Positions 1 through 24,000 are shown, numbered from the stretch's first letter. The stretch is DNA of 24,000 bases from Glycomyces sp. NPDC021274 (GCF_040641195.1 NZ_JBFADC010000005.1:85866-109865), one strand, 5' to 3'. Program-made: numbers and translations. The notes: generated by a model not told the origin, from the letters alone.

Positions 1-747
1 CACGGTGAATGGTGGGAGGAACTGCTCAACGCCATGCAGGCGAGCGCCGACATCTGCCTGCAGATCGTCGACGTGTTCGACTACGGCAAAGGCGTCGTGA
101 ACCTGTTCACTGGCAACTTCCTCGACATCCTCGGCACCCTCGCGGCGGCCGTGTGCAAAGGCTGGCTGGACTTCCTCTGGAACTCCTTCACACCCTTGCA
201 GGACGCCGTCGGTGTGCTGCTCGGCAACCCTCCGAAGATCACGAACTCCGCGAACATGTGGAACTCGGTGTCCGAGAACCTCAAGGCGCTCCTGGACGCC
301 ATGGGCCCGGACCTGGAGCGGACCCTCAACCAGTGCTGGGACGGCCAGGCGGCGTGCAACGCGAGCGTCCGCGCCGGGGACCTCCTGCAGACCGTCGACT
401 TCGCCTCGCAGAGCGCGAAGGGGCTGAGTGAGCTCCTGCTGATCTACGCGGACATGGCAGCGCGGATCAACGACACGGTCCGCCAGTTCATCGCCGACAT
501 CGTCGGCACGGTGATCGGCGCCATCGGCGACATCGCCACCAAGGGGCCGCTCGCGATCATTCCGATCGGCATCGACCTGGCGATCCTGCTCGCTCGGTAC
601 ACGATGCGGCTCATCGGCATCGCCATCCAGGAAGCCTGGTTCATCATCGCCGGGATGCAGCTGCTCATCACGATCAGAGGCTGCTTCGAGAAAGCCATGG
701 AAGTGCTTGAGAAGTTCTCCGGCTACAACCCCACGCTCAGCGTCTAG
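1..747 (+). CDS. WXG100-like domain protein with hydrophobic C-terminal region (5' end cut by window edge)
   Basis: Frame 1 is open from base 1 (HGEWWEELLNA precedes the first Met at 34) to TAG 745-747. GC3 bias is strong. A helix-turn-helix carries W-x-G (NQCWDGQAA) and is followed by Ile/Gly/Ala-rich hydrophobic helices. The architecture matches 18846-19817. Confidence 0.75.
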   Translation, partial: HGEWWEELLNAMQASADICLQIVDVFDYGKGVVNLFTGNFLDILGTLAAAVCKGWLDFLWNSFTPLQDAVGVLLGNPPKITNSANMWNSVSENLKALLDAMGPDLERTLNQCWDGQAACNASVRAGDLLQTVDFASQSAKGLSELLLIYADMAARINDTVRQFIADIVGTVIGAIGDIATKGPLAIIPIGIDLAILLARYTMRLIGIAIQEAWFIIAGMQLLITIRGCFEKAMEVLEKFSGYNPTLSV

Positions 748-758
748 GAGGTGCTGCA

Positions 759-1046
759 ATGGCGACAGACCCGTTCGACCAGGCCACGCTCGCCGCGCTG
801 GCGGAAGGCATCACCGCCACCGCCGCGCATGAGGAATCGCTCGTCAAGGCGACCGCACTCCCGCACGGGGTGATCGTCGAGCTCGAGATCCAGCCGACCC
901 TGCACGACCTGGGCGCCGCCACGGCGGCGGCCGAGATCCTGACCGTTATTCGTGCGGCGCAAGCACAAGCCGATGCGGAGCTCCAGCAGCGAGTGCAAGC
1001 GCACATCGCGGCGACGATGCCGGAATTCGGAGGAGGACAGGCATGA
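759..1046 (+). CDS. small YbaB/EbfC-like protein (tentative family call)
   Basis: ATG 759 is preceded by GGAGGTG. The product is 95 aa and the stop overlaps the next start (ATGA 1043-1046). The core GVIVELEIQPTL...AAEILTVIRAAQ resembles the YbaB/EbfC pattern. Confidence 0.6.
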   Translation: MATDPFDQATLAALAEGITATAAHEESLVKATALPHGVIVELEIQPTLHDLGAATAAAEILTVIRAAQAQADAELQQRVQAHIAATMPEFGGGQA

Positions 1047-1372
1047 GCTTCGACTTCGACTCGCTGAAGCACATGAGACCGGAAGACATGATCGTGCGGC
1101 TTGAAGCCATGAAGGCGCAGGCCGAGCAGCAGCTGGCCGCGTTCGAGGCGATGAAGGAGCAGATCACGGCGATCACCGTGACTCGCACCGATGCCGAGGG
1201 CATGGTCACGTTGACCGTGGGCAGCGACGGTTACATCACGGACCTCGTCATCGATCCGGCAGTACATGGCCAGCAGTACCGCAGGCTCGGGTCGGTCATC
1301 GTCGCGACGCTTGCCGAAGCCCGAGCCGAGCTGCAGCAGAAGCTGAATGAGGCGGCCCCGCGCCGGGGCTGA
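1043..1372 (+). CDS. YbaB/EbfC family protein
   Basis: ATG 1043 overlaps the upstream stop. The 109-aa product has a coiled-coil N-terminus followed by TDAEGMVTLTVGSDGYITDLVIDP...LGSVIVATLAEARAEL, the classic YbaB/EbfC core pattern. GC3 is high. Confidence 0.8.
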   Translation: MSFDFDSLKHMRPEDMIVRLEAMKAQAEQQLAAFEAMKEQITAITVTRTDAEGMVTLTVGSDGYITDLVIDPAVHGQQYRRLGSVIVATLAEARAELQQKLNEAAPRRG

Positions 1373-1394
1373 GGACCACGGACGAGAGGTGGCC

Positions 1395-1577
1395 ATGGAC
1401 TGGCAGGGAGTTCCGCTGAAGCGGCTCGCCGAGTTGTACGGGGTGGTGACGACTCCTGAAGAGGCCCGGAAGTTCTACCGCAGGCAGGCGCGGATCAACA
1501 TCCGGCTGATCTGGGGCACCAACCTCTTCTTCATCCTGCTCTTCGCCACCCTGGTGTTCACCGGAGTCCTCGCGTGA
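1395..1577 (+). CDS. small tail-anchored membrane protein (hypothetical)
   Basis: ATG 1395 has GAGGTGG just upstream. The 60-aa product has a basic N-terminus and one C-terminal TM helix (LFFILLFATLVFTGVLA). The stop overlaps the next start (GTGA 1574-1577). The ORF is short, so confidence is moderate. Confidence 0.55.
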   Translation: MDWQGVPLKRLAELYGVVTTPEEARKFYRRQARINIRLIWGTNLFFILLFATLVFTGVLA

Positions 1578-1918
1578 ACGGCCCGCAGGGGTCGCCGAAC
1601 CCTCAGGGGGTACCGCCGGAGGTCGAGGCGCGGCTGCGCGATCCCCGGCACCCGGTGCACCACGGCCTCGTTCTTCATCCTGTGCCGAACTTGATCGTCA
1701 CCCGCAGCACCCCGCGCTACGGGGAGCGGCACCTCAGGATGTCCTGGTGGATGGCCAAGACCGTGGTGTTCGTGCATTACACGCGCATGCAGAAGCTCCT
1801 GTACTTCGGCGGCCTCATCGTTCTGATCCTCATGTGGACCGTGATCCCGCTGCTGCTCTTCGCGGATACGCCCAGTTGTGTATTCGACATGTCCAGCAAC
1901 GGCTGTCCCGCACCTTAA
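1574..1918 (+). CDS. membrane protein (hypothetical)
   Basis: GTG 1574 overlaps the upstream stop. The 114-aa ORF is GC3-rich throughout and has a C-terminal TM helix (LLYFGGLIVLILMWTVIPLLLF). I recognise no family. Confidence 0.55.
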   Translation: MNGPQGSPNPQGVPPEVEARLRDPRHPVHHGLVLHPVPNLIVTRSTPRYGERHLRMSWWMAKTVVFVHYTRMQKLLYFGGLIVLILMWTVIPLLLFADTPSCVFDMSSNGCPAP

Positions 1919-2520
1919 GCACCGTCGTTCGGATTCCCTTCCATCTCGACGGTTTCACCGCCTTCCTGGAAGTAGGGCGGGCACTCGGTATCGGAGGCCT
2001 CGTCCAGATACTGCTCGATCTCCGCGACCCTCGATTCAAGGTAGGAACCCCGATAGACGGCCGGGGGGAAGTCCTCGCGCTGCGGCACCTCCAGCAGCAC
2101 CCGATCACCGGGTTGAAGTGCGCTTTGCGGATCAGACAGTCCGGGATCCAGTACATCGAGCTCCACCGGTGCCGGCGACGCGGCGGGCTTGAGCGGATCC
2201 TCGACCGCGAAGGTCACGATGATTCGGTCAGCGACATCGGAGGGCGCCACCGAAACGACCTCCCCCACCGCTATGAACTCGGAGCAGGCGATGTTCTCGG
2301 CTTCGTTCAGACTCTGAACGAACGGCTGTCGTTCATTCTTGCCGAAATCAGCCGTGACGAGAATGAACGTGCCAAAGATGACCAGCGAAGCGCCGAGCAC
2401 CAGTCCGGCGACCAGACCACCCGAGATCCGTTTGCGAGGCGCAGCACCGGCCTCTTTCCCGATCAGGTTGACCGCCCTCCGCAGATCCTCGTCTTCCGGT
2501 TCAGGTTCCTTCTCCGTCAT
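1915..2520 (-). CDS. single-pass membrane protein co-translated with ECF sigma factor (possible anti-sigma factor)
   Basis: ATG 2520 overlaps the sigma-factor stop (ATGA 2517-2520). The longer 280-aa ORF version runs out of frame through the sigma gene and is rejected. The 201-aa product has a short acidic cytoplasmic N-terminus, one TM helix (GGLVAGLVLGASLVIFGTFILV) and an extracytoplasmic domain of about 145 aa. No HxxxCxxC zinc anti-sigma motif is present. Confidence 0.7.
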   Translation of the reverse strand: MTEKEPEPEDEDLRRAVNLIGKEAGAAPRKRISGGLVAGLVLGASLVIFGTFILVTADFGKNERQPFVQSLNEAENIACSEFIAVGEVVSVAPSDVADRIIVTFAVEDPLKPAASPAPVELDVLDPGLSDPQSALQPGDRVLLEVPQREDFPPAVYRGSYLESRVAEIEQYLDEASDTECPPYFQEGGETVEMEGNPNDGA

Positions 2521-3047
2521 TGGATCTCCTCTACTTGCAATCGGGTCCGAAGCGCGGCCACAGCCGAGTTCAGTCGGCTCTTCACTGTGCCTTCCGGGAT
2601 ATCCAGCATGAGAGCGATGTCCCTGACCGGTAGATCGACAAAGAAGCGCAAGGCCACCACCTGCCGCTGGAGATCGGTCAGAAGCTCTAGCCGCTCCGCC
2701 ACTGCAAGCGCGAGGTCGCGGTCCTCCTGGGGATGATCCGGCGGCGTTGCGGCCCATCGTGCGGCAAGGCGTTCGCGCAGCCCGGTGTCGCGCTTCCGGG
2801 AACGGTGCCAGTCTGCCGCCACCCTCGAAGCGGCGACCGAGGCCCAGGCCCCAGGGTTCCGGATCGTCTCGAGATGAGCCTTCGAGCTTGACTGGAGCAG
2901 TTTGAGGCGGACCTCCTGGAGTGCGTCGTCCAGTTCGTCCCAGGGCACGCCGCCCAGAGCGAGGACCGCCCGGACCCGCTCCACCTCCTGTTGGTCGGTG
3001 AGGAGCGAAGCGCCTCGCTCCGCTCTGGTGCTGCGCTGTCGCGTCAT
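2517..3047 (-). CDS. ECF-type RNA polymerase sigma-70 family factor
   Basis: The 176-aa product has a region 2-like segment (RNPGAWASVAASRVAADWHRSRKR) and a region 4.2 HTH (LRFFVDLPVRDIALMLDIPEGTVKSRLNSA). A strong AAGGAGGAAG Shine-Dalgarno precedes ATG 3047. Confidence 0.9.
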   Translation of the reverse strand: MTRQRSTRAERGASLLTDQQEVERVRAVLALGGVPWDELDDALQEVRLKLLQSSSKAHLETIRNPGAWASVAASRVAADWHRSRKRDTGLRERLAARWAATPPDHPQEDRDLALAVAERLELLTDLQRQVVALRFFVDLPVRDIALMLDIPEGTVKSRLNSAVAALRTRLQVEEIQ

Positions 3048-3075
3048 GGCGGCTTCCTCCTTACTGTTGATATCT

Positions 3076-3104
3076 ATGACGCGCGAACCAGGTGGAACGT
3101 TCGG
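3076..3104 (-). promoter_or_regulatory. candidate ECF-type promoter upstream of the sigma factor gene
   Basis: On the minus strand, CCGAAC (3104-3099), a 17-nt spacer and CGTCAT (3081-3076) lie about 30-55 nt upstream of the sigma start. This resembles the GAAC...CGT layout of autoregulated ECF promoters. The call rests on motif resemblance only. Confidence 0.3.
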
Positions 3105-3139
3105 AGCCGGTCGTCATTTCATACGGCAGCTCCGCATTG

Positions 3140-3177
3140 CGGGCGACCGCAGACCTCTTGCAGTCTCCGGCCGCCCG
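3140..3177 (-). terminator. stem-loop terminator candidate after the 3202-3966 gene
   Basis: The minus-strand hairpin is CGGGCGGCCGGAGAC-TGCAAGAG-GTCTGCGGTCGCCCG, a 15-bp stem with one mismatch and one G-U. It starts about 25 nt after the stop at 3202. There is no U tract, which is common in high-GC actinobacteria. It lies just upstream of the candidate sigma promoter. Confidence 0.5.
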
Positions 3178-3201
3178 AATCGCGGCTATCTTCCTTGTGG
3201 G

Positions 3202-3966
3202 TCAGACACAGTCGGATGTCGCTGAGAACGCGTCAACCGGGACTTCGGGTGTTGCCGTCGGGGTGGCGGTTTCGAGCTCGGCGACCAGTGCGTCTGCGCT
3301 TTGCCCCGCCACCTGCTCTTCCAGGCCGCCGAAGGCCACGTTTTCCTCTGTCGCGGCGAACTGCTGCGGGCTCTGGATCTCACCTTCGAGTTCGCCGTTG
3401 CCGAGCACGCCGTCATCGTAGGGAATTTCGGAGCCTTCGCCGAGGCCGCGCCATTGCGCGGGCTCGGATTCTCCGTCCTCGCAGCGCTCGGGTTCCCATC
3501 GGATCGCCATGACATAGCTGTGGCCGACCTCGACCCGCGGACGCTCGTGCAGGGCCATCTCGAACGGCTCGGAGGTGTTGCCCTCCGTGAACTGCGCGCC
3601 GATCGCGGAGTAGTCCCACGTTGCAGGCGGGGCGACGAGGGTGCCGTCACGCGACCAGAGCACCTCGCTGACCTCCAGGGTCACAGTGCGGCCGATGATG
3701 CCCTCGCCGCGATCGAGTTCCGTCTGCGACGGCGGGACGGATACCTCTGATACCGCGCTGACCACGACAACGTGGTCGGCATAGGTGACCCAGTCGGCAG
3801 CAGTCTCACTCGGCAGGTGGTCGACACCTTCGACCATGACTGCACCGGGCGGGGGCTGCGATGGGGGGAGGGGCTCCGGAGCGGCGAACCCGGCGATTGC
3901 GAGGCCGATGGCCCCAGCGGTGGCCAGTACCGCTCCCACGGAGACGATCAGGGGTAGTCGCTTCAT
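3202..3966 (-). CDS. secreted or membrane-anchored acidic protein (hypothetical)
   Basis: The product is 254 aa. ATG 3966 has a GAGGAG Shine-Dalgarno and lies 10 nt after the protease stop, so the two are probably co-transcribed. The N-terminal signal or anchor is MKRLPLIVSVGAVLATAGAIGLAIAG. I recognise no family. Confidence 0.75.
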   Translation of the reverse strand: MKRLPLIVSVGAVLATAGAIGLAIAGFAAPEPLPPSQPPPGAVMVEGVDHLPSETAADWVTYADHVVVVSAVSEVSVPPSQTELDRGEGIIGRTVTLEVSEVLWSRDGTLVAPPATWDYSAIGAQFTEGNTSEPFEMALHERPRVEVGHSYVMAIRWEPERCEDGESEPAQWRGLGEGSEIPYDDGVLGNGELEGEIQSPQQFAATEENVAFGGLEEQVAGQSADALVAELETATPTATPEVPVDAFSATSDCV

Positions 3967-3976
3967 TGCCGTCTCC

Positions 3977-4630
3977 TCAGTAGGTGTTGTTGATGTTCTC
4001 GATGTTGTTGGAGCCGAGCGAGGTGGTGGAACCGACCGGGGTCACCATGCAGCCGAGCCGTGTATCGGTGTTGGTCTTCATCGGGGATGAGACGTTGCCG
4101 TGGACCAGACCGACCGCATGCCCCGTCTCGTGGCAAGCGAGTCCACGGGTGTAGGAGCCGGCCCCTCGGATGCGAACGTACTGCTGGTCGCACTTGTCCA
4201 GGTCCGATGCGTTGTTGCACCAGGTCATGCCGTCGACACTGGAAGGAATGTCGGCCGAGCCCTCCTGATAGATGATGTCGGTTTCGGCGCTGCCGGAGAA
4301 CGACGGAGTCGAGTCGTACGAGACGCTCAGGTCGGTGGGGTTGTAGTCGCTGGACATGGTCGCCCGAACGTCGTCCCTGTCCGGAGTTTCGAGTTCGAAC
4401 TCGCCGCCGCTGTCCATGTAGTACGTGAGTGTGGCGTTGTCCGTGCGGCAGGTGGACTGGCGTGCATTGGGTTCTTCCGAGAAGCAGCCGGCGTTGGCGT
4501 ACTGCGTCGGATACATGTTGTCCGTGTAAGCGGCCCAAGCGATCCCGGCGGTAGCCGCCAGGGCGATGAGCACAACGGCGCAGAAGCCGACGATTCTGGC
4601 CGCGATCTTGTCTGCAAAGGCTGTCAGCAA
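3977..4630 (-). CDS. secreted zinc metalloprotease, metzincin-type (HExxHxxGxxH)
   Basis: HETGHAVGLVHG matches the HExxHxxGxxH zinc-binding consensus, and a downstream Met is present (GCMVTP). A hydrophobic signal or anchor is present (IVGFCAVVLIALAATAGIAWA). The start is uncertain: TTG 4630 with AGGAAG upstream is preferred, and in-frame ATGs at 4708 and 4765 are alternatives. Confidence 0.8.
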   Translation of the reverse strand: MLTAFADKIAARIVGFCAVVLIALAATAGIAWAAYTDNMYPTQYANAGCFSEEPNARQSTCRTDNATLTYYMDSGGEFELETPDRDDVRATMSSDYNPTDLSVSYDSTPSFSGSAETDIIYQEGSADIPSSVDGMTWCNNASDLDKCDQQYVRIRGAGSYTRGLACHETGHAVGLVHGNVSSPMKTNTDTRLGCMVTPVGSTTSLGSNNIENINNTY

Positions 4631-4988
4631 TGCGTCTTCCTGTCTGTTCGAGGAGTCAGGGCATGCCGGAGGCCCCGGAGGGAGACAGGGCGTGCGCCTT
4701 GTGTGCATGGCTACGCCCCGACTTTGCGGATGCAAGCCAGTCGGGTCGTGCCGTTTGGTTGGCATTTCGATGCGGGGAGAGGGACGATCTTGCTGTGCCA
4801 GAGGGGTGTCCGGCGCTGTGAGGGAGCCTCCATAAGCGATTGCGCAAATTGGATTGCCGCAAGGTTAACAGGGTCTGAAGGCTCTGTCAATCACGCTCTG
4901 TTGCTGGGAGGCAACGTCAAACGACGTGCGGGTCGCCGCATGGCCGCTGTCGGCTGCGCCGTCCATCCCTCATCGAAAGGCGGCGACC

Positions 4989-6155
4989 TCAGTTCAGTGG
5001 GGCGCCCATCTGGTTCATGAAGTCGACCGGGTCCACCGCGCCGGCCGGGCTGCGGTCGGCGTTCAGGTGCGTCTCGAAGTGCAGGTGCGGACCGCTCGAT
5101 CGGCCGGACGAACCCACATAGCCGAGGATCTGACCGGCCTGGACTACGTCGCCCTCCTTCACCAGCGGAGCGGATCCGAAGTGGCAGTAGCGGGTCAGGT
5201 AGTCGCCGGCGTGCACGATGTTGACGTACCAGCCGCACCCGGCGACTTCCGGAGAACCGTCCTGGTTGCAGGAGTAGGGCGCACCGTACAGGCTCGCGTT
5301 GCACTCTGAGGTGATCACAGTTCCAGCAGCTGCGGCGACCACGGTCGCGCCGCGCGGTGCGCCGATGTCGACGCCGTGGTGGGTTGGTCTTTCAGCAGTA
5401 CGGAATCCGGAGTTCAGCGGCCCTTCGACTGGAATGATCCAACCTGAAGCGGAGAGCTGCCCGGAGGGATTGCAGTTGCCGAGCTGGGTGTCGACGGCGG
5501 CCACGCGACCGCCGCCGCCGGTCAGGGTGTTGACGATCTCGGTCGCCTTCGGCTCGTGCTTGGCGTAGGCATTGGGGAAGGCGGAGATCTGGACCTTCTG
5601 CGCCGCAACCGTCAGCGGCAGCGTCTCCCAGTCGTCGATGGTCAGGAGCTTCTCGTAGAACTTCGTCGAGGCGTAGACCGGATCGGTGATCTGTTCCGGT
5701 GTGCCCCAACCGGTCGACGGCCGCTGCTGGAACAGGCCGAGCGAGTCGTGGTCGTTCTGGTCGCCGAGGTGGCCGTGGTTCGTCAGGCTCGACTCCTGCA
5801 TCGCCGTCGCCACGGCGATGATCCAGCCCCGGGCCGGGATCTCGAGGTCCTGTCCGACCGAGATGATGATCGCGGCGTTCTTGATCTCCTCGGAGGTGTA
5901 CGGGCTGATCGCGGGGAACTCGGCATTCGGGTCGACCGTGGAGTTCGTGCCGCAACCGGCCAGGCTCACCGTGCCCTCGTCGCCGTTCGACTGGTCGGAC
6001 AGCAGCTGCACGACGGAGACGACCACACCGAGGCAGCACACGCTGACCACGGTGAGAATCCACATCAGCGGCCTGAGCTTCTTGGGGATCTTGGGCGTGA
6101 TGGGGTCCGCGGAGCGTTCCTTCGCAGTGGTCTCGTCGTCGCCGATGGCACTCAT
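4989..6155 (-). CDS. bifunctional peptidoglycan hydrolase: lytic-transglycosylase-like domain plus M23 metallopeptidase (VirB1-analogue role)
   Basis: The 388-aa product has an N-terminal TM anchor. Its middle domain carries AMQESSL...DHDSLGLFQQR. Its C-terminal part carries the M23/LytM motifs HHGVDIG and GSSGRSSGPHLHFE. The ATG overlaps the upstream stop (ATGA 6152-6155). Confidence 0.9.
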   Translation of the reverse strand: MSAIGDDETTAKERSADPITPKIPKKLRPLMWILTVVSVCCLGVVVSVVQLLSDQSNGDEGTVSLAGCGTNSTVDPNAEFPAISPYTSEEIKNAAIIISVGQDLEIPARGWIIAVATAMQESSLTNHGHLGDQNDHDSLGLFQQRPSTGWGTPEQITDPVYASTKFYEKLLTIDDWETLPLTVAAQKVQISAFPNAYAKHEPKATEIVNTLTGGGGRVAAVDTQLGNCNPSGQLSASGWIIPVEGPLNSGFRTAERPTHHGVDIGAPRGATVVAAAAGTVITSECNASLYGAPYSCNQDGSPEVAGCGWYVNIVHAGDYLTRYCHFGSAPLVKEGDVVQAGQILGYVGSSGRSSGPHLHFETHLNADRSPAGAVDPVDFMNQMGAPLN

Positions 6156-6691
6156 GACTGCTCCCAGTCGATCGCCGAGACGAGCCAGCCGGTCCCGGTC
6201 AGGTTGTTGGAGCCTTCAGTCATGGTGAGGGTCAGTGTTCCCGTGTCCATCGGGAAGGCGACCTTCAAGCCCTCTGGGACCGGGGGTCCGGTGACCTCCG
6301 TGGCAGGCACCTCGCTTGGGTCGACGCCCTGCATCAGCTCGGCCTGCTCATCGGTGAGGAACGGGATGATCGAGTCGTACCAGCCGTCGGCGCTGTACCC
6401 GTTCGGATTGAGCCAGGCCTCGGCGAACTCGACCGATCGGTCGACCGCTTCCTGCGGCAGCTCCTCTTCGGGGTAGCAGTCGTCGCTTTCGCAGTTCTCC
6501 GTCGCGAAGCCGTCGTCTTCAGTGAAGGCCTCGGAGCTCGCTTCCGACGTCGAGCCTCCGCCGTTGGCATTGCCGCCGTCGAGCGGTGTCTGTTCGCGTT
6601 GGCTTGCCAGTGCGATGACGCCGAGCACGAGGATCAGGATGATGACGACGATCCCGTAGCGGGAGAAGATGATCCGGAGGGCTCGGTTCAT
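6152..6691 (-). CDS. bitopic membrane protein, VirB8/TcpC-like by topology and position
   Basis: The 179-aa product has an N-terminal TM helix (IVVIILILVLGVIALA), an acidic linker and a C-terminal extracytoplasmic domain of about 100 aa. The start lies 3 nt after the upstream stop. The functional label is inference only. Confidence 0.75.
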   Translation of the reverse strand: MNRALRIIFSRYGIVVIILILVLGVIALASQREQTPLDGGNANGGGSTSEASSEAFTEDDGFATENCESDDCYPEEELPQEAVDRSVEFAEAWLNPNGYSADGWYDSIIPFLTDEQAELMQGVDPSEVPATEVTGPPVPEGLKVAFPMDTGTLTLTMTEGSNNLTGTGWLVSAIDWEQS

Positions 6692-6694
6692 CGG

Positions 6695-12209: not shown

Positions 12210-12253
12210 GGGCGTCCTCCGTCCGGCCTTATTTCAGGGGCGATGTGGGGTTG

Positions 12254-12771: not shown

Positions 12772-12918
12772 CACTAAACTCGGGGAGGTCGGTGTCCTAC
12801 GCTCGGAGACGCCCCTGGGCCGCACAATAGAGCCCGACGAACCAGCACCGACCGACACAACCGAATCCAGCCCACACCGCCGGCCACCAGGCCGAGCACC
12901 GACCTCGCGGAGACCACC

Positions 12919-14354: not shown

Positions 14355-14364
14355 GGCAGGCACC

Positions 14365-14880: not shown

Positions 14881-15046
14881 GGGGGTGCGGACCTTCCGTG
14901 GGGGAACCCGGAAGCGGGGTTATCCAGCAAACTAGACCAGCGGTGCCAGTACCACCGTCGTGGCCGCCGATTCCGTGCGCACCAGCCCTGGCGGGCCGGT
15001 GCTAGCCTGACCGCACAGCACCACCGCACCCCCGAGGAGGCTTGAC

Positions 15047-15394: not shown

Positions 15395-15398
15395 CGCG

Positions 15399-15929: not shown

Positions 15930-15941
15930 AAAGCCCGGCCC

Positions 15942-16502: not shown

Positions 16503-16529
16503 TCCCGAACAGCGAGAAGAGGTCCCTCG

Positions 16530-16919
16530 GTGAGTCTTGACCAGGCGTCCGACGACGAATTGGAACGGGTGCGCGGCCTGGTGGCGGACGCGTTGGAGTC
16601 GGCGGGCATCCGCTGGCAGTTGCATGAGAAGCCGCAGTCGTACGCGGTCGCGCAAGTGACCATCGACTACGGCCGGGACTCCGGCCGCGGCGTGTTCGTC
16701 TCCTGGGAGCAGAGCCTCGCCGAGCACGAGTCGCTCATGCGCCTCGTCCGCGAAGGCGACCACATGAACCCGCGCATCCTCGCCGCAGACGACGAGGCCC
16801 AAGCAGTCAACGCGCGGCTCCAGGCGGCGCTGCGCGCGGCCGGCATCGAATCCGAGGACGCCGAGAACGACTTCGCCCCCTACCTGCTGCGAATCGTCTC
16901 CGCCCCGGGCACCGCCTAG
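16530..16919 (+). CDS. putative deaminase immunity protein
   Basis: GTG 16530 is the first start codon after the toxin stop, 27 nt downstream. The product is a 129-aa acidic cytoplasmic protein. A decayed paralogue lies at 13766-14052. The role is inferred from position. Confidence 0.75.
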   Translation: MSLDQASDDELERVRGLVADALESAGIRWQLHEKPQSYAVAQVTIDYGRDSGRGVFVSWEQSLAEHESLMRLVREGDHMNPRILAADDEAQAVNARLQAALRAAGIESEDAENDFAPYLLRIVSAPGTA

Positions 16920-16944
16920 TACCCGGCCACGACTGGAGCTCCAC

Positions 16945-17655
16945 ATGACCCCCGCTGAAGACCCCAAGCCGTTCGAGTTCGCGGTGCCCGAGGACTACGA
17001 GCGGCACATCGACGAGGCGCGGGCCGCGCTCGACGTCGTGCCCCGCAACGAGAACTGGGAGAACGCCCAGCGCGTCCTCGCCGACCCGCCCAGCCGTGAA
17101 GCGATCGAGGCCGCACAGCGCGAAGCCGCCGAGGCCATGGCGATGCTCGCCGCGTTCCAGCAGGCCCGCCACACCGGCTACGACCCCGACCAGACCACCA
17201 AGGTCGTCATCGACGCCGCCGGGGAACTGCGCGAACTCGAATTCGGCGTCGACGCCGTCCGCCTGGGCAACCACGGCCTCGCCGACGCCATCGGCCTCGC
17301 CTGGGCCGCGGCACAGGACGCGCGCGCCGAGAGCCAAGGCGACTACACCTCGCGCACCGGCGCGCTCGGCGGCGGCAACACCCCCGCCGAGCAGGTGCTC
17401 GCCGACATCGAGTTCGCCCTCAGCGCCCGCGAGCACGAGCGCTTCGGGGCCACCACCGAGGACGGGCTCACCAAACTCGCCGTCAACCTGCGCGGACGCC
17501 TCACCGAGGTGGTGTTCCTGCAGAACAACGTCCTCAACCTCACCGACCGCCACACCCTCGCCGAACAGCTCACCGCCGCCGTGCAGCGGGCGCAGTCGGA
17601 CGCGGCGGCCGTCGTCGGCGAGATCGGCGCCGCCCACTACGCCCGGTTGGGATAG
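16945..17655 (+). CDS. tandem YbaB/EbfC-like domain protein
   Basis: The 236-aa product has two YbaB-type cores: TKVVIDAAGELRELEFGVDAVRLGNHGLADAIGLAWAAAQ and LTKLAVNLRGRLTEVVFLQNNVLNLTDRHTLAEQLTAAVQRAQ. Confidence 0.8.
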   Translation: MTPAEDPKPFEFAVPEDYERHIDEARAALDVVPRNENWENAQRVLADPPSREAIEAAQREAAEAMAMLAAFQQARHTGYDPDQTTKVVIDAAGELRELEFGVDAVRLGNHGLADAIGLAWAAAQDARAESQGDYTSRTGALGGGNTPAEQVLADIEFALSAREHERFGATTEDGLTKLAVNLRGRLTEVVFLQNNVLNLTDRHTLAEQLTAAVQRAQSDAAAVVGEIGAAHYARLG

Positions 17656-17772
17656 CGCCCGCCGCGGCGGTGAGCTGCTCTAACGGCCGCCCCTACCGCT
17701 CGTGCAGCGGTGCGCTCCGCACGCGTTTGTTCGGTATTGTCATGGTGACGTCCACCGAAGTGAGCCGCCGCT

Positions 17773-18531
17773 GTGACCGATCCCGGCCAGACTTTCACCG
17801 ACATCGATGAATATGTGACGCTGCGCCTCGACGACGACAAGATCATCGTCGCGGTGACGGCCGCCGGTTTCCGCCAACCCCCGAGCACCATCGCACGCCT
17901 GGTCACCGAACTCGCCGCCCGGCTGCCCCGCCCCGGCGCCGAAGCCGACGCCGCGGTCGCCAACGGCATCAAGGCCATCGGCGAACTCCAGGACGCCGCC
18001 GCCACCGGCGGCTACGAGGCCTTCGCCGCCATGATGCGCGGGCGCCTCGGCATCGGCGGCGTCGCCAGCCCGATCGGCCCCAACACCCTCAGCCGCGACC
18101 CCGAGCACGACCGCGCCCTCGCCGGCCACCTCGACGGCGTCCTCAAGACCATGCGCGCCGCCCAGACCGCCCGCACCGGGCCCGCCGCCGACCGCGACCA
18201 CCTCGACGTCAAAGTCCACAGCGACGAAGGCGACCTCAGCGTCACCGCCAGCGCCGAACGCGCCGTCGCCGCCGTCTGGATCGGACCCACCGCCCGCCAG
18301 CGGGGCCTCGACGGCCTCGGCCGGGCGCTCACCGACCTCATCGCCCGCGCCCGCGACGAACTGCGCCGCGCAGCAGAGCAGCGCGCCCGGGACACCCTCC
18401 CCGCCGACCTCGCCCGCAAGACCGAGCAGGCCCCCGCCGCCGCCGACCGCGCCACCCGCGCCGCCGGGGACATGGCCGAACGCGTCCAGCAGCTCAGCGA
18501 CAGCATCCAGCGAAAGGCAGGACCCCGATGA
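17773..18531 (+). CDS. hypothetical protein with a possible N-terminal YbaB-like core and an Ala/Arg-rich helical C-terminus
   Basis: GTG 17773 has only a weak Shine-Dalgarno. The 252-aa ORF has high GC3 and contains VTLRLDDDKIIVAVTAAGFRQPPSTIARLVTELAA near its N-terminus. The stop overlaps the next start (ATGA 18528-18531). Confidence 0.65.
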   Translation: MTDPGQTFTDIDEYVTLRLDDDKIIVAVTAAGFRQPPSTIARLVTELAARLPRPGAEADAAVANGIKAIGELQDAAATGGYEAFAAMMRGRLGIGGVASPIGPNTLSRDPEHDRALAGHLDGVLKTMRAAQTARTGPAADRDHLDVKVHSDEGDLSVTASAERAVAAVWIGPTARQRGLDGLGRALTDLIARARDELRRAAEQRARDTLPADLARKTEQAPAAADRATRAAGDMAERVQQLSDSIQRKAGPR

Positions 18532-18833
18532 CCCGCGTCTTCGACAGCGAATTCGTCCGGCAGCTCGGCGCCGACATCGAGGCCAAGGTGGTCCCGATCC
18601 TGGAGAGCACCGACGAGTACCTCCAGGTCATGAGCGAGATCGACCGCGGCCTCTACACCACCGTCACCCTCCCCATGGCCGCCGCCTACTCCATCGCCAC
18701 GTCCACCGTCACCGAGTCCATGGCCGGAGCCGCCGCATGCTTCCGCGAGGTCAACGCCGCACTTGACGCGTGCGCGCAGGATATGGACGACACCGACGAA
18801 GCCTGCGCCACCGCGTTCGGCGCGAACGGATAG
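18528..18833 (+). CDS. small helical ESX-like protein (hypothetical)
   Basis: The product is 101 aa, acidic and predicted helical. The gene is translationally coupled to the upstream gene. Confidence 0.7.
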   Translation: MTRVFDSEFVRQLGADIEAKVVPILESTDEYLQVMSEIDRGLYTTVTLPMAAAYSIATSTVTESMAGAAACFREVNAALDACAQDMDDTDEACATAFGANG

Positions 18834-18845
18834 GAGCGGGCGACC

Positions 18846-19817
18846 ATGTCAACGGGGCAGAGCATCATGGAGGCCGGGGAGGCGATGGCCGGTGAGTACA
18901 ACGCCGTCATCAAGGGCTGCGCCATCGGCATCGCCGCGCCCGCCATCGCCTTCGGGCTCTCCACGCAGGCGCTCGCCACCGTCGTCTACCTCAACCAGTG
19001 CAACCCCGGCGACATCATGAAAGGCGCCGGCGCCTGGATCGCCTTGGCGGAGAAGAACCTCGAAGCGGTCGAAGCGCTCCAGGCCGAGGTCGACAAGGTC
19101 GACGACGAGCACTGGTCGGGCGCCGACGCCGAAGCGTTCAAAGCCGCCTCCGGGGACGTGAAGGCCCAGCTCACCCAGCTCGCCGTCAACGCCTACCTCG
19201 TCGGCGCGCAGCTGCTCGCGTTCGCGGTGATGCTCACCGTCTTCTGGATGTTCCTCACCGCCGCCACCGCCATCATGGCCGTCTACTTCGGCGCGTACAT
19301 CGCGGCCCTGTCGGGCGTCGTCAGCGCCGTCGGCGCCCCCGCGATCATGGCCAGCGCGAACGTCACGGCCGCCTCCCTGCTGGCCACCGCCAAGAGCTTC
19401 GAGGCCACCCTCATTTCCATCTCGACCGGGTGCGCGGCGATCACCGGTGCGATGTCGGTGTTCACGTTCGCGTTCCAGAAGTCCCAGGGCAACCCGGTCT
19501 CGCCGCTCGACATCGCCGGCGCGGGCCTGGCCAACATGCTCGAGGGCCTGCTCGTGTACGGCATCAACGCCGCCACGATGACCTCGGGCGGGCGGCACGC
19601 CACGGGGGCGCTGGCCAGCGGCTGGGCGCTCGCGGGGCACCTCACCCAGGCCGCCTCGACGTTCTTCCCCGCGTACAAGGGCGAGGACGACGGATGGGAG
19701 GCCGGGTTCGACGGCGGCGGGCCGCTGCTCGGCGTCCCCGACTCGGCGCTCAACTGGCTGTGGGAGGACAACGCGCCCGAGTCGATGAAGAACCCCGAAG
19801 ACCTGGACTGGTCCTGA
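18846..19817 (+). CDS. WXG100-like domain fused to a multi-helix hydrophobic region
   Basis: The 323-aa product has W-x-G at DDEHWSGADAEAF within a helix-turn-helix. About 150 aa of hydrophobic helices follow (LLAFAVMLTVFWMFLTAATAIMAVYFGAYIAAL...), then an acidic, Trp-rich tail. GGAGCGGG lies upstream of the ATG. Confidence 0.8.
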   Translation: MSTGQSIMEAGEAMAGEYNAVIKGCAIGIAAPAIAFGLSTQALATVVYLNQCNPGDIMKGAGAWIALAEKNLEAVEALQAEVDKVDDEHWSGADAEAFKAASGDVKAQLTQLAVNAYLVGAQLLAFAVMLTVFWMFLTAATAIMAVYFGAYIAALSGVVSAVGAPAIMASANVTAASLLATAKSFEATLISISTGCAAITGAMSVFTFAFQKSQGNPVSPLDIAGAGLANMLEGLLVYGINAATMTSGGRHATGALASGWALAGHLTQAASTFFPAYKGEDDGWEAGFDGGGPLLGVPDSALNWLWEDNAPESMKNPEDLDWS

Positions 19818-21172
19818 TGCGCACCGGGAGCCCTTCGTTCCGGCCGCCGCGGCCGGGCTGGGAGATCGCCCGCATCGGCGAGCCGCGCCCGGCGGACGGC
19901 GGCGTGCTGGACCTGCGGGTCGGCCACTGCGGCGGCGCGACCGACAAGACGCCGGCCCAAGCGGCGGTGAACATCTCGGAGCGCCGGAAGGCGGGCGACC
20001 CGATCGCCGTCTGGAGCGACCTGCGGTCGAGCCTCGTCCCGGTCGTGCTCGTCGACGGCACGCCGGTCGCGACCGGCTGGGGCCGCATCGAACTGCCGCT
20101 CCCCGCGGGCCGGCACCTGATCGAGGTGCAGAGCCAGCACTCGCGCACGTGGCGGGCGTTCGACATCGCGGCGGGGAAGGCCACGAAGCTCGACTACATC
20201 GGGATGCTCGGCGAAGCGCACCGGGCGTACGGCGAAGCGGAGCTGCGGTGGAACCTCCAGGGCCTGCACGGGCACACGGTGGGGCCGCGCGGGCGTCTGA
20301 ACTACTTCCAGTACCTGCCCGCGAACGCCAAGGAGCGCAAAAGCTTCCTCGCTTTCATGCTCGCGGCGCTCGTAGGCGCGACGCTCTCGGCCGCGCTCGC
20401 GTACGCGGGCGTCCCGGCCGGCATCGCGATCCCGGCGGGCGCCGTCATCTGGGCGAGCGCCCTGGCGGCGTGGGGGATCAGGGTCCTGTGGACGCACCTG
20501 CGGTACAACCGGCTCGCGCCCGAAGCGCCGCTCGACACGCGCCCGTTCACCCGCGGCACGGCCGCGCCGCTCGTGCTCGACGCCGACGGGGACCTGCCCG
20601 AACTGGGGCCGGGGGCGGCGGCGGTGCTCCTCGACGCGCGGTTCCTGAAGGCCGACCTCGCCTCCGACGAGCTGGCGCTGCAGCTGCCCGAAGGCCAGGA
20701 CCGCATCGACGGGAAGCAGGCCAAGGCGTTCAACGCGGTCGGCGAGGTCGTCCCGATCCGGCACCGGTACGCCGTGCCGCCGCCGGAGGTCCTGCTCGAC
20801 GGGGTCGCCTTGGGGGCCTTCTGGACCCGCATGTGGCTCGCGGTGCCGCCCGGGACGCACCGGCTCGAGGTGCGCACGCCGGCCGCGCCGCTCCCGGTCG
20901 AAGGGCGGGCGCATCAGCCGCACACCGCCGTCGCCACGGTCAACGTCGACGCGGGCGAGGTCGCCCGGGTCGACCTCTCGGTCACGGTGACCGCGGTGCC
21001 CGACCCGCTGCGTCCCGTGCTGCACCTCTGGCACTGCCGCATCGACCGGCTCGGCCCCGCCGCGGCGCACGAGGCGCCCGCCGTTCCGAGGGCCGACGTC
21101 CGCGGCGGCCTGCGCCGCGCCGTCACGGGCCGGTACTGGGAGACCAAAGACGACATTCCTCCCACGCGGTGA
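19817..21172 (+). CDS. membrane protein with two PEGA-like beta-sandwich repeats flanking a TM hairpin
   Basis: ATG 19817 overlaps the upstream stop by 1 nt (TGATG). The first 273 aa of the 724-aa ORF-track entry are an out-of-frame shadow of 18846-19817. The 451-aa product contains VDGTPVATGWGRIELPLPAGRHLIEVQ and LDGVALGAFWTRMWLAVPPGTHRLEVR on either side of two TM helices. Confidence 0.75.
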   Translation: MRTGSPSFRPPRPGWEIARIGEPRPADGGVLDLRVGHCGGATDKTPAQAAVNISERRKAGDPIAVWSDLRSSLVPVVLVDGTPVATGWGRIELPLPAGRHLIEVQSQHSRTWRAFDIAAGKATKLDYIGMLGEAHRAYGEAELRWNLQGLHGHTVGPRGRLNYFQYLPANAKERKSFLAFMLAALVGATLSAALAYAGVPAGIAIPAGAVIWASALAAWGIRVLWTHLRYNRLAPEAPLDTRPFTRGTAAPLVLDADGDLPELGPGAAAVLLDARFLKADLASDELALQLPEGQDRIDGKQAKAFNAVGEVVPIRHRYAVPPPEVLLDGVALGAFWTRMWLAVPPGTHRLEVRTPAAPLPVEGRAHQPHTAVATVNVDAGEVARVDLSVTVTAVPDPLRPVLHLWHCRIDRLGPAAAHEAPAVPRADVRGGLRRAVTGRYWETKDDIPPTR

Positions 21173-21260
21173 TCACGGTCTTTCGCGAGGTTCCATCGAT
21201 GGCGCCTTGTTGCTACCGTGAACCCGTCCGGTCACCCCTGAAGCCGCGAGGTGCGTATCG

Positions 21261-22862
21261 ATGAGCGACAACTCGAGTGCGTCCTACCCTGGACTCGACG
21301 CCGCCGCGCCGGCCATGGGTGCCCCCGCGTTCGGCAGTGCCGCGCCGCCCGCGGCGCCTCCGCCGCCCCCGCCTCCCGCTGACGAGACGGTCGCCCCGCC
21401 GGTGGCCGAGGAGAGCCTCCCCGCTGGCCGCACGCCCTGCTCGAACCCCAACTGCGGCAACCCGACCGAGCACCCCGCCGAACTGGACTGGCAGCAGCTC
21501 GTCTCGGCCGTGCCCGTCACGGGCCAGCTGTACCGCCTGCGCCCCAAGGAAGCCGGGATGGCGTTCCCGACCGAGGCCGACTTCCGCGCGGCCGTCGCCG
21601 CCGTGCGGCCCGAGCGCGCCGACGCGCACTCGCTCGAGCACCTGCGCAACGCCTGGAGCGAGAACGTGACCGGGCGGATCGCCGACTGGTCCGAGCAGAT
21701 CAAGTCCAACCTGAACGAGCTCGCCGAAGGCTGGTCGGGCACCGACTTCGAGGCCTTCGAGGCCACATGCACGCAGACGCGCGAACTCGTCGACGACCTG
21801 GTCGACGACATCGACGCCACCGTCGCCAACCTGCAGTCCACTGAGGAGGCGCTCTACTCGATCCAAGGCGGCAGCTCGGGCGAGATCCCGTACCCCGCAC
21901 CGCAGTTCTGGATCGACGGCGACTGGCACAGCTGGGTGTCGGTGCATGTGCGGCCCGCGTGGTGGCACGGCGACTGCATCGAGTACACCTGCCAGGACGC
22001 CGAGCACGTGCTCGCCCTCGGCGGCGCCGAACCCGAGCTCGCCACCGAGATCATCGACTACATCGACGAGCGCATCCTCCACTACATCGACTACTACGCC
22101 AGCCCCGTCAACATCGAGCGCGACGGCCTCGACCCCACGAAGGGCCTCACAGTCGTGGAGGCCAAGGAGCTCGCCGTCGCCGACGCGATGGAGCACTACG
22201 GGACCCTCGTCGACCAGAGCTGGGGCGCGTACGACGCCCGCCAAGCAGAGTCCAATGAGGACATTCAGCAGCGGAGCACCGACACCGATGCCGAGGACCG
22301 CTCCGTGCGGACCGTGCACAGCGACAAGGAGTACCCGCCGTCCGCCGACCCGGCGTACATGAACCTCGAACCCCCGCCGATGGAGCAGCCCAGCGGCAGC
22401 GCGCAGCCCATGGCCAGCGAAGACCCCTCGCTCGACCCGCCCGTCGGCGAGACCCCCGCCGAACCGGTCGACCCAGCGGCGCCCGACGATCCCGCGGAGG
22501 ACGACGGCGAGGAGCCGAGCGGCGGCCTGGCGAGCGGCGGCGCGGGCACGGGCACCGCGGGCGGCTTCGGCGGAGGAGGCGGCGGCGGTTTCGGCGCTGG
22601 TGCCGTACCTGCAAGTGCCACTTCGGGTTCCGGCGCTTCGATGGGCGGCGCCCTCGGCGGCGCGGCCCTCGGCGCGGCAGCGGGCGGTGCCGCGGCCGCC
22701 ACGGGATCGCGCGGCTCCGCGGCCATGATGAGCGGTGGCGGCGGGGCGGGAGCCGGGCGCGGCATGAACATGGACGACAAGGACCGCGAACCGGACGTCG
22801 ACCTGGTCGAGGACGAGAACATGTGGGGCTTCGTCAACGAGGACGACGACCCCTACGCTTAA
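21261..22862 (+). CDS. large mosaic WXG-like protein (Pro-rich N-terminus, WXG helix pair, Cys/Trp-rich domain, Gly/Ala-rich tail)
   Basis: The product is 533 aa, with a GAGGTG Shine-Dalgarno upstream. It contains PPPPPPP and CSNPNCGNPTEH near the N-terminus and W-x-G at LAEGWSGTDFEAF. A Gly/Ala/Ser low-complexity region of about 90 aa follows (about 22500-22770). The C-terminus is acidic (EDENMWGFVNEDDDPYA). Confidence 0.8.
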   Translation: MSDNSSASYPGLDAAAPAMGAPAFGSAAPPAAPPPPPPPADETVAPPVAEESLPAGRTPCSNPNCGNPTEHPAELDWQQLVSAVPVTGQLYRLRPKEAGMAFPTEADFRAAVAAVRPERADAHSLEHLRNAWSENVTGRIADWSEQIKSNLNELAEGWSGTDFEAFEATCTQTRELVDDLVDDIDATVANLQSTEEALYSIQGGSSGEIPYPAPQFWIDGDWHSWVSVHVRPAWWHGDCIEYTCQDAEHVLALGGAEPELATEIIDYIDERILHYIDYYASPVNIERDGLDPTKGLTVVEAKELAVADAMEHYGTLVDQSWGAYDARQAESNEDIQQRSTDTDAEDRSVRTVHSDKEYPPSADPAYMNLEPPPMEQPSGSAQPMASEDPSLDPPVGETPAEPVDPAAPDDPAEDDGEEPSGGLASGGAGTGTAGGFGGGGGGGFGAGAVPASATSGSGASMGGALGGAALGAAAGGAAAATGSRGSAAMMSGGGGAGAGRGMNMDDKDREPDVDLVEDENMWGFVNEDDDPYA

Positions 22863-22901
22863 CGCACCCCGTCCCTGAAACCTTCGGAAAGGAACCCTGA
22901 G

Positions 22902-23240
22902 ATGCCAACGCGCGCTTTCGATCCGGCCGCACTCGAGCGCTACCGGCAGTTCCTCGCCGGACTCCTCGAAGAACTCGAGAACGAGATCATCCCGTCCCTC
23001 AGCGACGGCGACCTGAAGAAGGCCCCCGCCTTCGGCACCGCCCCCGGCGCGGCCGAGAACGCCGCCATCGAGTACGCCGACTTCCACGCCACCACCTGGC
23101 GAAACCTCCAGTACCTCCGCGGCACCCTCCACGGCCTCATCAACGGCCTCCAAACCGCCATCGACACCGGCGGCACCGTCGACCAGCAGGTCGCCACCGA
23201 CATCGCGAGCCTCACCGGGGGCGACGACCTCTACGCCTGA
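22902..23240 (+). CDS. small helical ESX-like protein (hypothetical)
   Basis: The product is 112 aa, with a GGAAAGGAA Shine-Dalgarno upstream. Its N-terminus MPTRAFDPAALERY resembles those of 15399 (MPTFQQCLDANPAQL) and 23780 (MPSFDIDPETFRQ). Confidence 0.7.
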   Translation: MPTRAFDPAALERYRQFLAGLLEELENEIIPSLSDGDLKKAPAFGTAPGAAENAAIEYADFHATTWRNLQYLRGTLHGLINGLQTAIDTGGTVDQQVATDIASLTGGDDLYA

Positions 23241-23249
23241 TCCTGACGC

Positions 23250-23274
23250 GGCCCAACGCGCATCGCGTGGGGCC
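23250..23274 (+). terminator. GC-rich hairpin after the 22902-23240 gene
   Basis: The hairpin is GGCCCAACGCG-CAT-CGCGTGGGGCC (11-bp stem, one mismatch) and begins 10 nt after the stop. An AT-richer stretch follows (TTGAAC...TATATGATGAG) before the next gene. There is no U tract. Confidence 0.4.
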
Positions 23275-23375
23275 CGTGAGTGCTGCTGGGGCACAAGTGA
23301 TCGTTGAACCCGGACATTTGCCATGTCGGTATATGATGAGTGATCCTCAGATACCACAAGGCAACTGGAGATCAC

Positions 23376-23777
23376 ATGTTCGGAGAGGACGCGATTGCGC
23401 AGCAACTGGCGGACGCCCGCGCGACACTGAGCACGGCAGTCAGGTCTCCTGAGGACCACCAGATCGAACCAGTGATCGTGGAGGGCGTAGACGGCCTCCT
23501 CAAACTGACACTCGGCGTCGAAGGCCGCGTGGACAAGTTCGAGTTCGATCCCCGCATCATGCGCATCGGCTCCGAAGTCCTCTTCGACGAGATCAAGCGA
23601 ATGGTCAACGCCGCCTTGGACGAACGCGCCGAGGCTCTGGGCACCGACGAACCCGCCCCCGACCTTGAAGCGATCAACGAGTCGGTGGCCGAGATCCAGG
23701 ACCGGTCGCTGCGCCAGTTCCAGGCCATGAGCGCCTCGATCAGCGAGGTCATGAACAAGCTCCATGGAGGCAGGTAG
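23376..23777 (+). CDS. YbaB/EbfC family protein
   Basis: ATG 23376 with GGAG 6 nt upstream is preferred over GTG 23340, giving 133 aa. The core reads VIVEGVDGLLKLTLGVEGRVDKFEFDPRIMRIGSEVLFDEIKRMVNAALDE. Confidence 0.8.
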   Translation: MFGEDAIAQQLADARATLSTAVRSPEDHQIEPVIVEGVDGLLKLTLGVEGRVDKFEFDPRIMRIGSEVLFDEIKRMVNAALDERAEALGTDEPAPDLEAINESVAEIQDRSLRQFQAMSASISEVMNKLHGGR

Positions 23778-23779
23778 CC

Positions 23780-24000
23780 ATGCCGAGCTTCGACATCGAC
23801 CCCGAGACTTTCCGGCAGGCCGCCGACCAACTTGACGCCGCCAAGGACGAAGTCCAGGGTCTCCTCGACCAGTTCACCGGAGCCTTGGAACAGTTCGCCG
23901 ACGCCTTCGGCGGCGACGAGATCGGCATGCTCGTCGGCATCGCCCACCAGGCTTGCACTGACGCCCTGACCGAGTGCTTCTCGACCAATATCGAAGAGCT
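23780..24000 (+). CDS. small helical ESX/WXG-like protein (3' end cut by window edge)
   Basis: ATG 23780 lies 8 nt after GGAGG. The sequence MPSFDIDPETFRQAADQLDAAKDEVQGLLDQFTGALEQFADAFGGDEIG shows a helix-turn-helix with FGG at the turn. The frame is open to the window end. Confidence 0.7.
   Translation, partial: MPSFDIDPETFRQAADQLDAAKDEVQGLLDQFTGALEQFADAFGGDEIGMLVGIAHQACTDALTECFSTNIEE

Follow-up and report, generated by a model that had tools for sequence, protein, structure and literature searches.

Compact type IV secretion systems (T4SS) of Gram-positive bacteria are known from conjugative plasmids and from integrative and conjugative elements (ICEs). In the Tcp system of plasmid pCW3, the Con system of ICEBs1, Tn916 and the Streptomyces plasmid pSM17C, genes for small membrane proteins, a VirB4/TcpF ATPase, a VirB6/TcpH-like protein, a TcpC/VirB8-like protein and a hydrolase are arranged in a common order. 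Here we analyzed a stretch of 24,000 nucleotides from the chromosome of a Glycomyces isolate, Glycomyces sp. NPDC021274 (this entire stretch is referred to as the window), which carries a six-gene T4SS-like operon with the same gene set and order, flanked on both sides by genes of the kind that encode substrates of type VII secretion systems (T7SS). In contrast to the conjugative plasmids and ICEs, the Glycomyces locus lacks TcpA/VirD4, a relaxase, partition genes and an integrase, and its operon is chromosomal, vertically inherited and conserved at a level typical of housekeeping genes. The hydrolases differ as well, as the Glycomyces operon encodes an M23 enzyme, whereas the mobile relatives encode NlpC/P60 or VanY.

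The flanking genes have their closest described counterparts in the substrate operons of ESX-4-type T7SS. In Mycobacterium abscessus, the operons of the SigM/ESX-4 regulon are scattered and combine genes for YbaB/EspL-like and PE/PPE/WXG proteins with effector genes, among them a homologue of CpnT that is encoded with EsxE/EsxF (PMC13491425). EatA is exported together with a WXG100 pair, and the polymorphic-toxin literature classes WXG-linked toxins of Actinobacteria as T7SS cargo. The Glycomyces genes resemble the esxF-esxE-cpnT-ift genes of M. tuberculosis, the EatA-TapA1/TapA2 genes of M. abscessus and the cassettes of the SigM regulon in that helical pairs are encoded beside a toxin and an immunity gene, and further likenesses to ESX-4 substrate operons are the YbaB/EspL-like genes, the distance from an ESX core and the TNT domain. 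However, the Glycomyces toxins are short, stand-alone proteins of 171 and 186 amino acids (aa) and not C-terminal domains of large carriers, their PPE-like partners possess hydrophobic C-terminal helices, and their dependence on a T7SS is a prediction.

Co-location of T4SS-like and T7SS-type genes in an actinobacterium has a precedent in the pRAW-type plasmids (PMC5381665). These plasmids are mobile and possess an entire ESX core along with a VirD-type gene and TcpC, whereas ESX core, coupling protein and mobility are all missing from the Glycomyces locus. VirB4-driven T4SS that work without a coupling protein are the Ptl system of Bordetella and the ComB system of Helicobacter, which reside in diderm envelopes and handle pertussis toxin taken from the periplasm and incoming DNA, respectively. 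The Glycomyces operon is similar in that a VirB4 channel is kept without VirD4 and relaxase and would serve a purpose other than conjugation, but the envelope in this case is monoderm. Finally, the X-T4SS of Xanthomonadales delivers antibacterial toxins that are paired with immunity proteins, and a C-terminal XVIPCD signal of the effectors is recognized by VirD4. A toxin-exporting T4SS as proposed in a preliminary description of the window would resemble this system; in contrast to X-T4SS, Glycomyces has no VirD4 at the locus and its toxin genes reside in T7SS-type cassettes.

In our interpretation, the window probably comprises two separate systems, i.e. a chromosomal minimal T4SS core and cassettes for T7SS (ESX-4-type) substrates on both sides of it. 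The first system would be a conjugation-derived minimal Gram-positive T4SS core without coupling protein or relaxase at the Glycomycetales locus. Its chromosomal operon appears to have been passed on vertically within Glycomycetales and Micromonosporales, and its products probably still assemble into a channel that is driven by ATP, spans the envelope and opens its own passage through peptidoglycan. The second system would consist of cassettes encoding YbaB/EspL-like proteins, a PE-like and PPE/WXG-like pair and sometimes a small toxin with its immunity gene. The more novel result is the vertically inherited T4SS operon without a coupling protein, the distant relatives of which reside on plasmids and mobile elements, while the cassettes are of a known kind. 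Two actinobacterial orders, which include many antibiotic producers, have long kept a minimal T4SS core encoded in a chromosomal operon, and this may represent a clean case of a conjugation machine turned to other use in a monoderm. The fast-evolving Glycomyces island of PE/PPE-like pairs and toxins with a common leader could in turn help to define ESX-4-type toxin recognition outside mycobacteria.

A chromosomal operon encoding a minimal T4SS-like core

As the raw list of open reading frames (ORFs) is mostly noise at a GC content of 62-75%, genes were called by frame analysis of the third-position GC content (GC3) and annotated using Pfam and NCBIfam. Relatives of the locus were collected by scanning one genome per species, which yielded at least 504 candidate stretches. 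The best 80 of these, all of them from Glycomycetales or Micromonosporales, were used for locus comparison. The groups compared comprised 19 Glycomyces loci, one locus from a Glycomyces-like metagenome-assembled genome (MAG), 7 Stackebrandtia loci and 56 loci of the Micromonosporales group.

Identity of the ATPase encoded by the operon follows taxonomy and amounts to 82-96% for Glycomyces, 67-78% for Stackebrandtia and 63-76% for Micromonosporales; the ATPase of G. algeriensis is 96% identical. Each of the six core genes was detected in 71-81 of the ~80 loci, which represent different species. In Micromonosporales, the operon adjoins folP-folB-folK in 44 of 44 full-length loci, and in 36 of them folE (together with ftsH) is present on the other side; the operon there is inserted in a conserved ftsH-folE / folP-folB-folK housekeeping cluster (e.g. 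locus L084, 9262-21749, and locus L086). In Stackebrandtia and in a metagenomic relative with 51% identity, the operon adjoins a PspC-type two-component system and other housekeeping genes. The system is a pair of PspC-domain histidine kinase and response regulator (locus L085, 4395-7901; locus L089, 6108-8090), and this neighborhood hints at a link of the operon to envelope-stress sensing.

The same six-gene order, with ATPases of 32-38% identity, is present on Streptomyces plasmids and on ICE-like elements, together with ParA and a coupling protein of the VirD4 or FtsK type. On plasmid pSM17C, the six genes directly follow an annotated VirD4-type coupling protein, while FtsK-type ATPases, ParA, RecT or WhiB are present on the ICE-like elements. 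Coupling-type ATPases accompany all of the element-borne relatives (4/4). The ATPase family as a whole is broad and comprises 403 clusters at E <1e-30. Judged from these sequence comparisons, the simplest reading would be that the chromosome of an ancestor shared by both orders acquired a conjugative T4SS, which has since been held under strong selection. The only mention of the chromosomal operon that we found in the literature is a passing one in the genome paper of Micromonospora lupini, where a single virB4-like gene is described among unknown genes (PMC4182475).

Genes for mobilization or for a T7SS core are missing from the Glycomyces locus. None of the called ORFs of the window matched Pfam or NCBIfam families for FtsK/EccC, EccB, EccD, mycosin, VirD4, relaxases, integrase or ParA. 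Sequence was also read beyond the window, for ~9 kb on the left and 2.5 kb on the right. EccC was absent from the window and these flanks, and from a further 6 kb at the orthologous locus of G. algeriensis. A tblastn search with three coupling proteins produced no match in the window, its extensions or any Glycomycetales locus, and the 10 kb on either side of the ATPase gene were free of coupling ATPases in all Glycomyces and Stackebrandtia loci. Scans of the window for tRNAs and Rfam families were empty, revealing neither a riboswitch upstream of the hydrolase gene nor a tRNA integration site, and no match was obtained when the operon was searched against plasmids at near identity.

The operon (4989-12532, minus strand) runs from 12532 to 4989. 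Its first gene (12254-12532, minus strand) encodes a small protein with two predicted transmembrane segments (TMs). The second gene (11820-12209, minus strand) encodes a 129-aa protein with a hydrophobic hairpin, which is 59-99% identical over both orders and has no match to a Pfam or NCBIfam family; its position and topology suggest a VirB3-like protein. The stop codon of this gene overlaps by 4 nt with the start of the following gene (8626-11823, minus strand), which encodes the ATPase of the VirB4/TcpF family (Pfam AAA_10, E = 4.6e-23; TcpF, E = 6.6e-23). The Walker A (GGGKST) and Walker B (DEAH) motifs of the ATPase are invariant in an alignment of 10 sequences. Because of the 4-nt overlap we favor the long form of the protein, whereas public gene calls begin after an N-terminal extension and give 872 aa. 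This extension of ~230 aa (11130-11823, minus strand) is rich in Pro, Gln and Tyr, contains GYPQ-type repeats and is marked by a sharp fall of GC3. It is also the reason why the length of the ATPase homologues varies from ~870 to 1438 aa.

The fourth gene (6695-8629, minus strand) encodes a polytopic membrane protein of 644 aa (548 aa in public calls, which use a later start) with six hydrophobic segments. It matches the NCBIfam family CD3337/EF1877 ("mobilome membrane protein") with E = 4.8e-8, which is below the NCBI cut-off, occupies the same position adjoining VirB4 as its counterpart on pSM17C and is kept in ~78 loci. We therefore designate it VirB6-like, and it would act as the channel protein. 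The bitopic 179-aa protein encoded next (6152-6691, minus strand) is a candidate analogue of VirB8/TcpC. Structure prediction with AlphaFold2 (AF2), in which alignments were restricted to Glycomyces sequences, suggests a C-terminal alpha+beta domain of the NTF2-like type, with pLDDT >90 for residues 80-179. TcpC of pCW3 (3UB1) is the best PDB profile match, albeit a weak one (E = 0.22), and the top Foldseek matches are NTF2-like proteins including the IcmL-like T4SS protein 5CNL (E ~0.5, not significant). These matches are consistent with the assignment, which is unproven. The last gene (4989-6155, minus strand) encodes a cell-wall hydrolase composed of an N-terminal TM, a weak lysozyme-like (SLT_3) domain and a Peptidase_M23 domain (Pfam, E = 1.8e-24) that carries the HxxxD and HxH motifs. 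The gene is kept in 71-76 loci, and the combination of M23 and lysozyme-like domains is predicted to make the protein a bifunctional cell-wall hydrolase.

In 38 Micromonosporales loci, the operon is followed by genes for a soluble 840-aa FtsK/EccC-like protein, an Rv0361-like membrane protein and three unknown proteins. The 840-aa protein was considered as a true EccC and rejected, as it possesses a single weak FtsK domain (E = 1.9e-15; the cut-off is 509 bits) and no TM, and its Walker A motif has Lys replaced by Arg (GRSAAGRS).

T7SS-type substrate cassettes around the operon

The inventory given in the preliminary description largely held up when the genes were called anew. The T4SS-like operon with its VirB4, VirB6, VirB3-like, bitopic and hydrolase genes was recovered as six genes by Pfam, NCBIfam and topology, and the flanking genes are indeed of the T7SS-substrate type. 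All four long WXG-motif proteins carry WxG (1-747, 15399-15929, 18846-19817 and 21261-22862). The six YbaB-like domains correspond to six matched stretches in five YbaB/EspL-like proteins, of which three exceed the Pfam cut-off (759-1046, 1043-1372 and 16945-17655) and two fall below it (17773-18531 and 23340-23777). Two toxins, a TNT protein and a deaminase, score above the Pfam cut-offs and have adjacent candidate immunity genes, the role of which is suggested by their position. EccC, a coupling protein, a relaxase and TraB, noted as missing, are absent from the called ORFs of the 24 kb. Only the number of small helical ESX-like proteins had to be corrected from at least five to four in the window (15047-15394, with an EspC match at E = 7.5e-9; 18528-18833; 22902-23240; and 23780-end). 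A small EspC/PE-like gene followed by a large gene with WxG is an arrangement that recurs four times.

Linkage of such genes to the operon was assessed by profile searches using the YbaB, small-helical and long-WXG proteins of the window as queries. Depending on which protein class was used, matches were obtained in 18-19 of the 19 Glycomyces loci, as well as in the Glycomyces-like MAG. None of the 7 Stackebrandtia loci matched, and the sole match among the 56 loci of the Micromonosporales group was a lone YbaB-like ORF in one locus. In precomputed Pfam annotation of four chromosomal loci outside Glycomyces, WXG and YbaB genes were likewise absent.

The usual layout in Glycomyces consists of the operon, a divergent gene for a 277-aa membrane protein and a block encoding YbaB, PE-like, PPE-like, 451-aa, 533-aa WXG100 and 112-aa proteins. 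In the window, the block from the PE-like gene onwards spans 18528-23240 (plus strand) and encodes a PE-like protein of 101 aa, a PPE-like protein of 323 aa (Pfam PPE, E = 3.8e-5), the 451-aa membrane protein, the 533-aa WXG100 protein (E = 1.2e-6) and the 112-aa helical protein. Most genes of this block are present in 15-17 of the 19 Glycomyces loci, the 451-aa gene in only 10. AF2 predicts a helical bundle for the 323-aa PPE-like protein, with Foldseek matches to PPE15, PPE4 and EsxA at a probability of ~1.0. It is 100% identical to a protein of Glycomyces sp. NPDC021274. Homologues of this protein bear PPE or WXG100 annotation, and none were detectable outside Glycomyces.

The remaining cassettes turn over rapidly. 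Only 1-5 of the 19 Glycomyces loci possess the toxin cassettes that are inserted at 14121-17655, TNT being found in 1/19, and the left arm (1-4765) is limited to two Glycomyces species or fewer. At 13778-14052 (minus strand), a degraded copy of the immunity gene at 16530-16919 was detected by tblastn, in which only residues 1-20 and 87-126 align. It appears to be the remnant of a lost toxin cassette and hence a record of past turnover.

Export of the toxins most likely proceeds through a T7SS that is built around EccC and encoded elsewhere, and the helical pairs would serve as their targeting or pore-forming partners, as is the case for EsxE/EsxF with the TNT toxin CpnT and for TapA1/TapA2 with EatA. 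Four ESX-4 clusters have been reported in Stackebrandtia nassauensis, which belongs to the same family as Glycomyces, and two in Salinispora tropica (PMC4791881), while in Micromonospora lupini an ESX-4-like locus is separate from the only virB4 gene (PMC4182475). Because of the ESX-4-substrate architecture of the cassettes and these ESX-4 clusters in relatives, an effector island for a distant T7SS that happens to sit beside a T4SS-like operon, which the preliminary description had offered as its second possibility, is the better-supported half of that description.

Both toxins of the window, TNT (14365-14880, minus strand) and the deaminase (15942-16502, plus strand), open with a shared leader, MTT[GS]KHxxxLPxSxxR[RK]. 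A third toxin from another Glycomyces species (locus L014, 6116-6748, minus strand) has the same leader and a different C-terminal domain, and a DNase toxin encoded to the right of the window is without it. The leader may be a targeting signal for very small stand-alone toxins.

Several observations weigh against two separate systems. The small toxins have no WXG or LXG domain of their own and instead carry the short leader, and the presence of a T7SS in Glycomyces itself is extrapolated from relatives. Moreover, 17 of the 19 Glycomyces species retain the divergent arrangement of operon and YbaB/PE/PPE block, even where the block proteins have diverged to 32-50% identity, and this arrangement may reflect function and not inertia. 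More generally, every function at the locus is a prediction from sequence alone.

Possible coupling of the two gene sets

In a more far-reaching reading, the T4SS core of Glycomyces would be functionally coupled to the YbaB/PE/PPE block, either by exporting the block proteins along with the leader-bearing toxins or by taking part with them in a joint contact-dependent process. We consider such coupling unlikely; if true, it would be the first chromosomal hybrid of T4SS hardware and T7SS-type substrates.

A cooperation of both gene sets in a contact-dependent cell-to-cell process, e.g. the transfer of chromosomal or plasmid DNA, could draw on precedents in pRAW-type plasmids and in distributive conjugal transfer. 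On mycobacterial plasmids, T4SS and T7SS genes co-evolve and are both needed for conjugation (PMC5381665; reviewed in PMC12857230). The adjacency of T4SS and T7SS-type genes in Glycomyces and the FtsK/EccC-like protein beside the operon in Micromonosporales fit such a role. However, the adjacency to WXG genes is confined to one genus, relaxase, coupling protein and ESX core are missing from the locus, and the content of toxin and immunity genes points to antagonism rather than mating. Such a cooperation is improbable.

A further explanation, put forward in the preliminary description, is that the T4SS core lacking a coupling protein has been recruited in Glycomyces to export PE/PPE/WXG-like proteins and toxins for interbacterial antagonism. 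The divergent arrangement is stable across the genus (17/19), neither EccC nor a coupling protein is encoded nearby, the control region is conserved, and ATATGATGAG is common to the upstream regions of the operon and one cassette. Moreover, the Ptl system of Bordetella demonstrates that a T4SS can export protein without a coupling protein. Nevertheless, the operon is equally conserved in Stackebrandtia and Micromonosporales, where essentially no WXG/YbaB genes adjoin it, the substrates have T7SS-type fold and architecture, and the toxin cassettes are recent insertions. We know of no route by which a T4SS recruits cytoplasmic substrates when Sec signal and coupling protein are both missing, and since this applies to the cargo and the locus in question, the explanation is left without a plausible route of recruitment. 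The preliminary description had itself named a lack of linkage between the operon and WXG/toxin genes in related genomes as refuting this explanation, and the linkage turned out to be limited to the genus. A hybrid toxin-export machine would have been a new secretion principle, but the comparative evidence weighs against it: because operon and cassettes are neighbors only in Glycomyces, we regard it as quite unlikely.

The idea that the operon is the mating-pore module of an ordinary ICE, with coupling protein and relaxase outside the window, is very improbable, for although the closest mobile relatives share the six-gene order and the search spanned ~10 kb on either side of the ATPase gene, neither protein is encoded in the flanks read, the chromosomal position is fixed across Micromonosporales, the ATPase identity tracks taxonomy with the operon present in at least 504 candidate stretches among species genomes, no integrase, tRNA, ParA or coupling ATPase is found nearby in Glycomycetales, and there is no near plasmid match.

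Control region and further genes of the window

Two separate systems thus being the preferred interpretation, we turn to the remaining features. The region between the operon and the divergent gene for the 277-aa membrane protein (12533-12918) is strongly conserved within Glycomyces, as seen in 18 aligned sequences (the window and 17 Glycomyces loci). It contains a perfect 18-bp palindrome, GTGTCGGCAATCCGACAC, at 12757-12774, which is unique to the control region of the operon, and an invariant CATATGATGA at 12633-12644. ATATGATGAG occurs upstream of the operon and also a short distance ahead of the YbaB gene at 23340, both in the window and in G. algeriensis. As it is shared with one cassette only, co-regulation of operon and cassettes cannot be claimed. 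A scan for sigma-70 promoters gave nothing useful. The 277-aa membrane protein gene itself (12919-13752, plus strand) keeps its divergent position in Stackebrandtia and two further lineages.

The left arm starts with the C-terminal 248 aa of a 318-aa PPE/WXG100_2-like protein (1-747, plus strand) with a WDG motif and two hydrophobic helices, the PE-like 107-aa partner of which is encoded just left of the window. Two YbaB/EspL-like proteins follow (759-1046 and 1043-1372, plus strand; Pfam YbaB_DNA_bd, E = 1.1e-5 and 1.1e-11), and then two small proteins with a single predicted TM each (1395-1577 and 1574-1918, plus strand), called by GC3. The variable part of the arm (1915-4765, minus strand) has a lower GC content (0.64) and is present in 2 of the 19 Glycomyces loci. 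All four of its genes lie on the minus strand: 1915-2520 specifies a single-TM protein in the position of an anti-sigma factor, 2517-3047 an extracytoplasmic function (ECF) sigma factor, 3202-3966 a secreted protein of 254 aa and 3977-4765 a metzincin-like protein with HETGHAVGLVHG that is anchored in the membrane.

To the right of the operon, the 171-aa TNT NAD+ glycohydrolase toxin (14365-14880, minus strand; Pfam TNT, E = 9.9e-28) is followed downstream by its candidate immunity gene (14121-14354, minus strand), assigned by position. The deaminase cassette (15047-16919, plus strand) consists of genes for an EspC/PE-like protein of 115 aa (15047-15394), a WXG-like protein of 176 aa with the WxG motif (15399-15929), the XOO_2897 deaminase toxin of 186 aa (15942-16502; Pfam, E = 1.5e-7) and a 129-aa candidate immunity protein, again by position (16530-16919). 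Between this cassette and the conserved block, 16945-18531 (plus strand) encodes YbaB/EspL-like proteins of 236 aa, which contains two YbaB stretches, and 252 aa, both identified using Pfam.

Within the conserved block, the 533-aa WXG100 protein (21261-22862) and the 112-aa protein (22902-23240) both end in D-[DL]-[PL]-Y-A; the former also contains a long tract rich in Gly and Ala and, close to the N-terminus, a CxxxxC motif. Some but not all of the small helical proteins have an export-like [YHW]xxxD/E motif close to the C-terminus, which is suggestive but not evidence. The next cassette begins with genes for a YbaB-like protein of 145 aa and a PE-like small protein that is cut by the window end (23340-24000, plus strand). 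Beyond the right end, this cassette continues with a WXG100_2 protein, a NucA/NucB DNase toxin and an immunity gene. Further immunity genes were encountered outside the window, a SUFU-type gene together with two more YbaB genes in the left flank (~9 kb) and a SUKH-4 gene at the orthologous locus of G. algeriensis.

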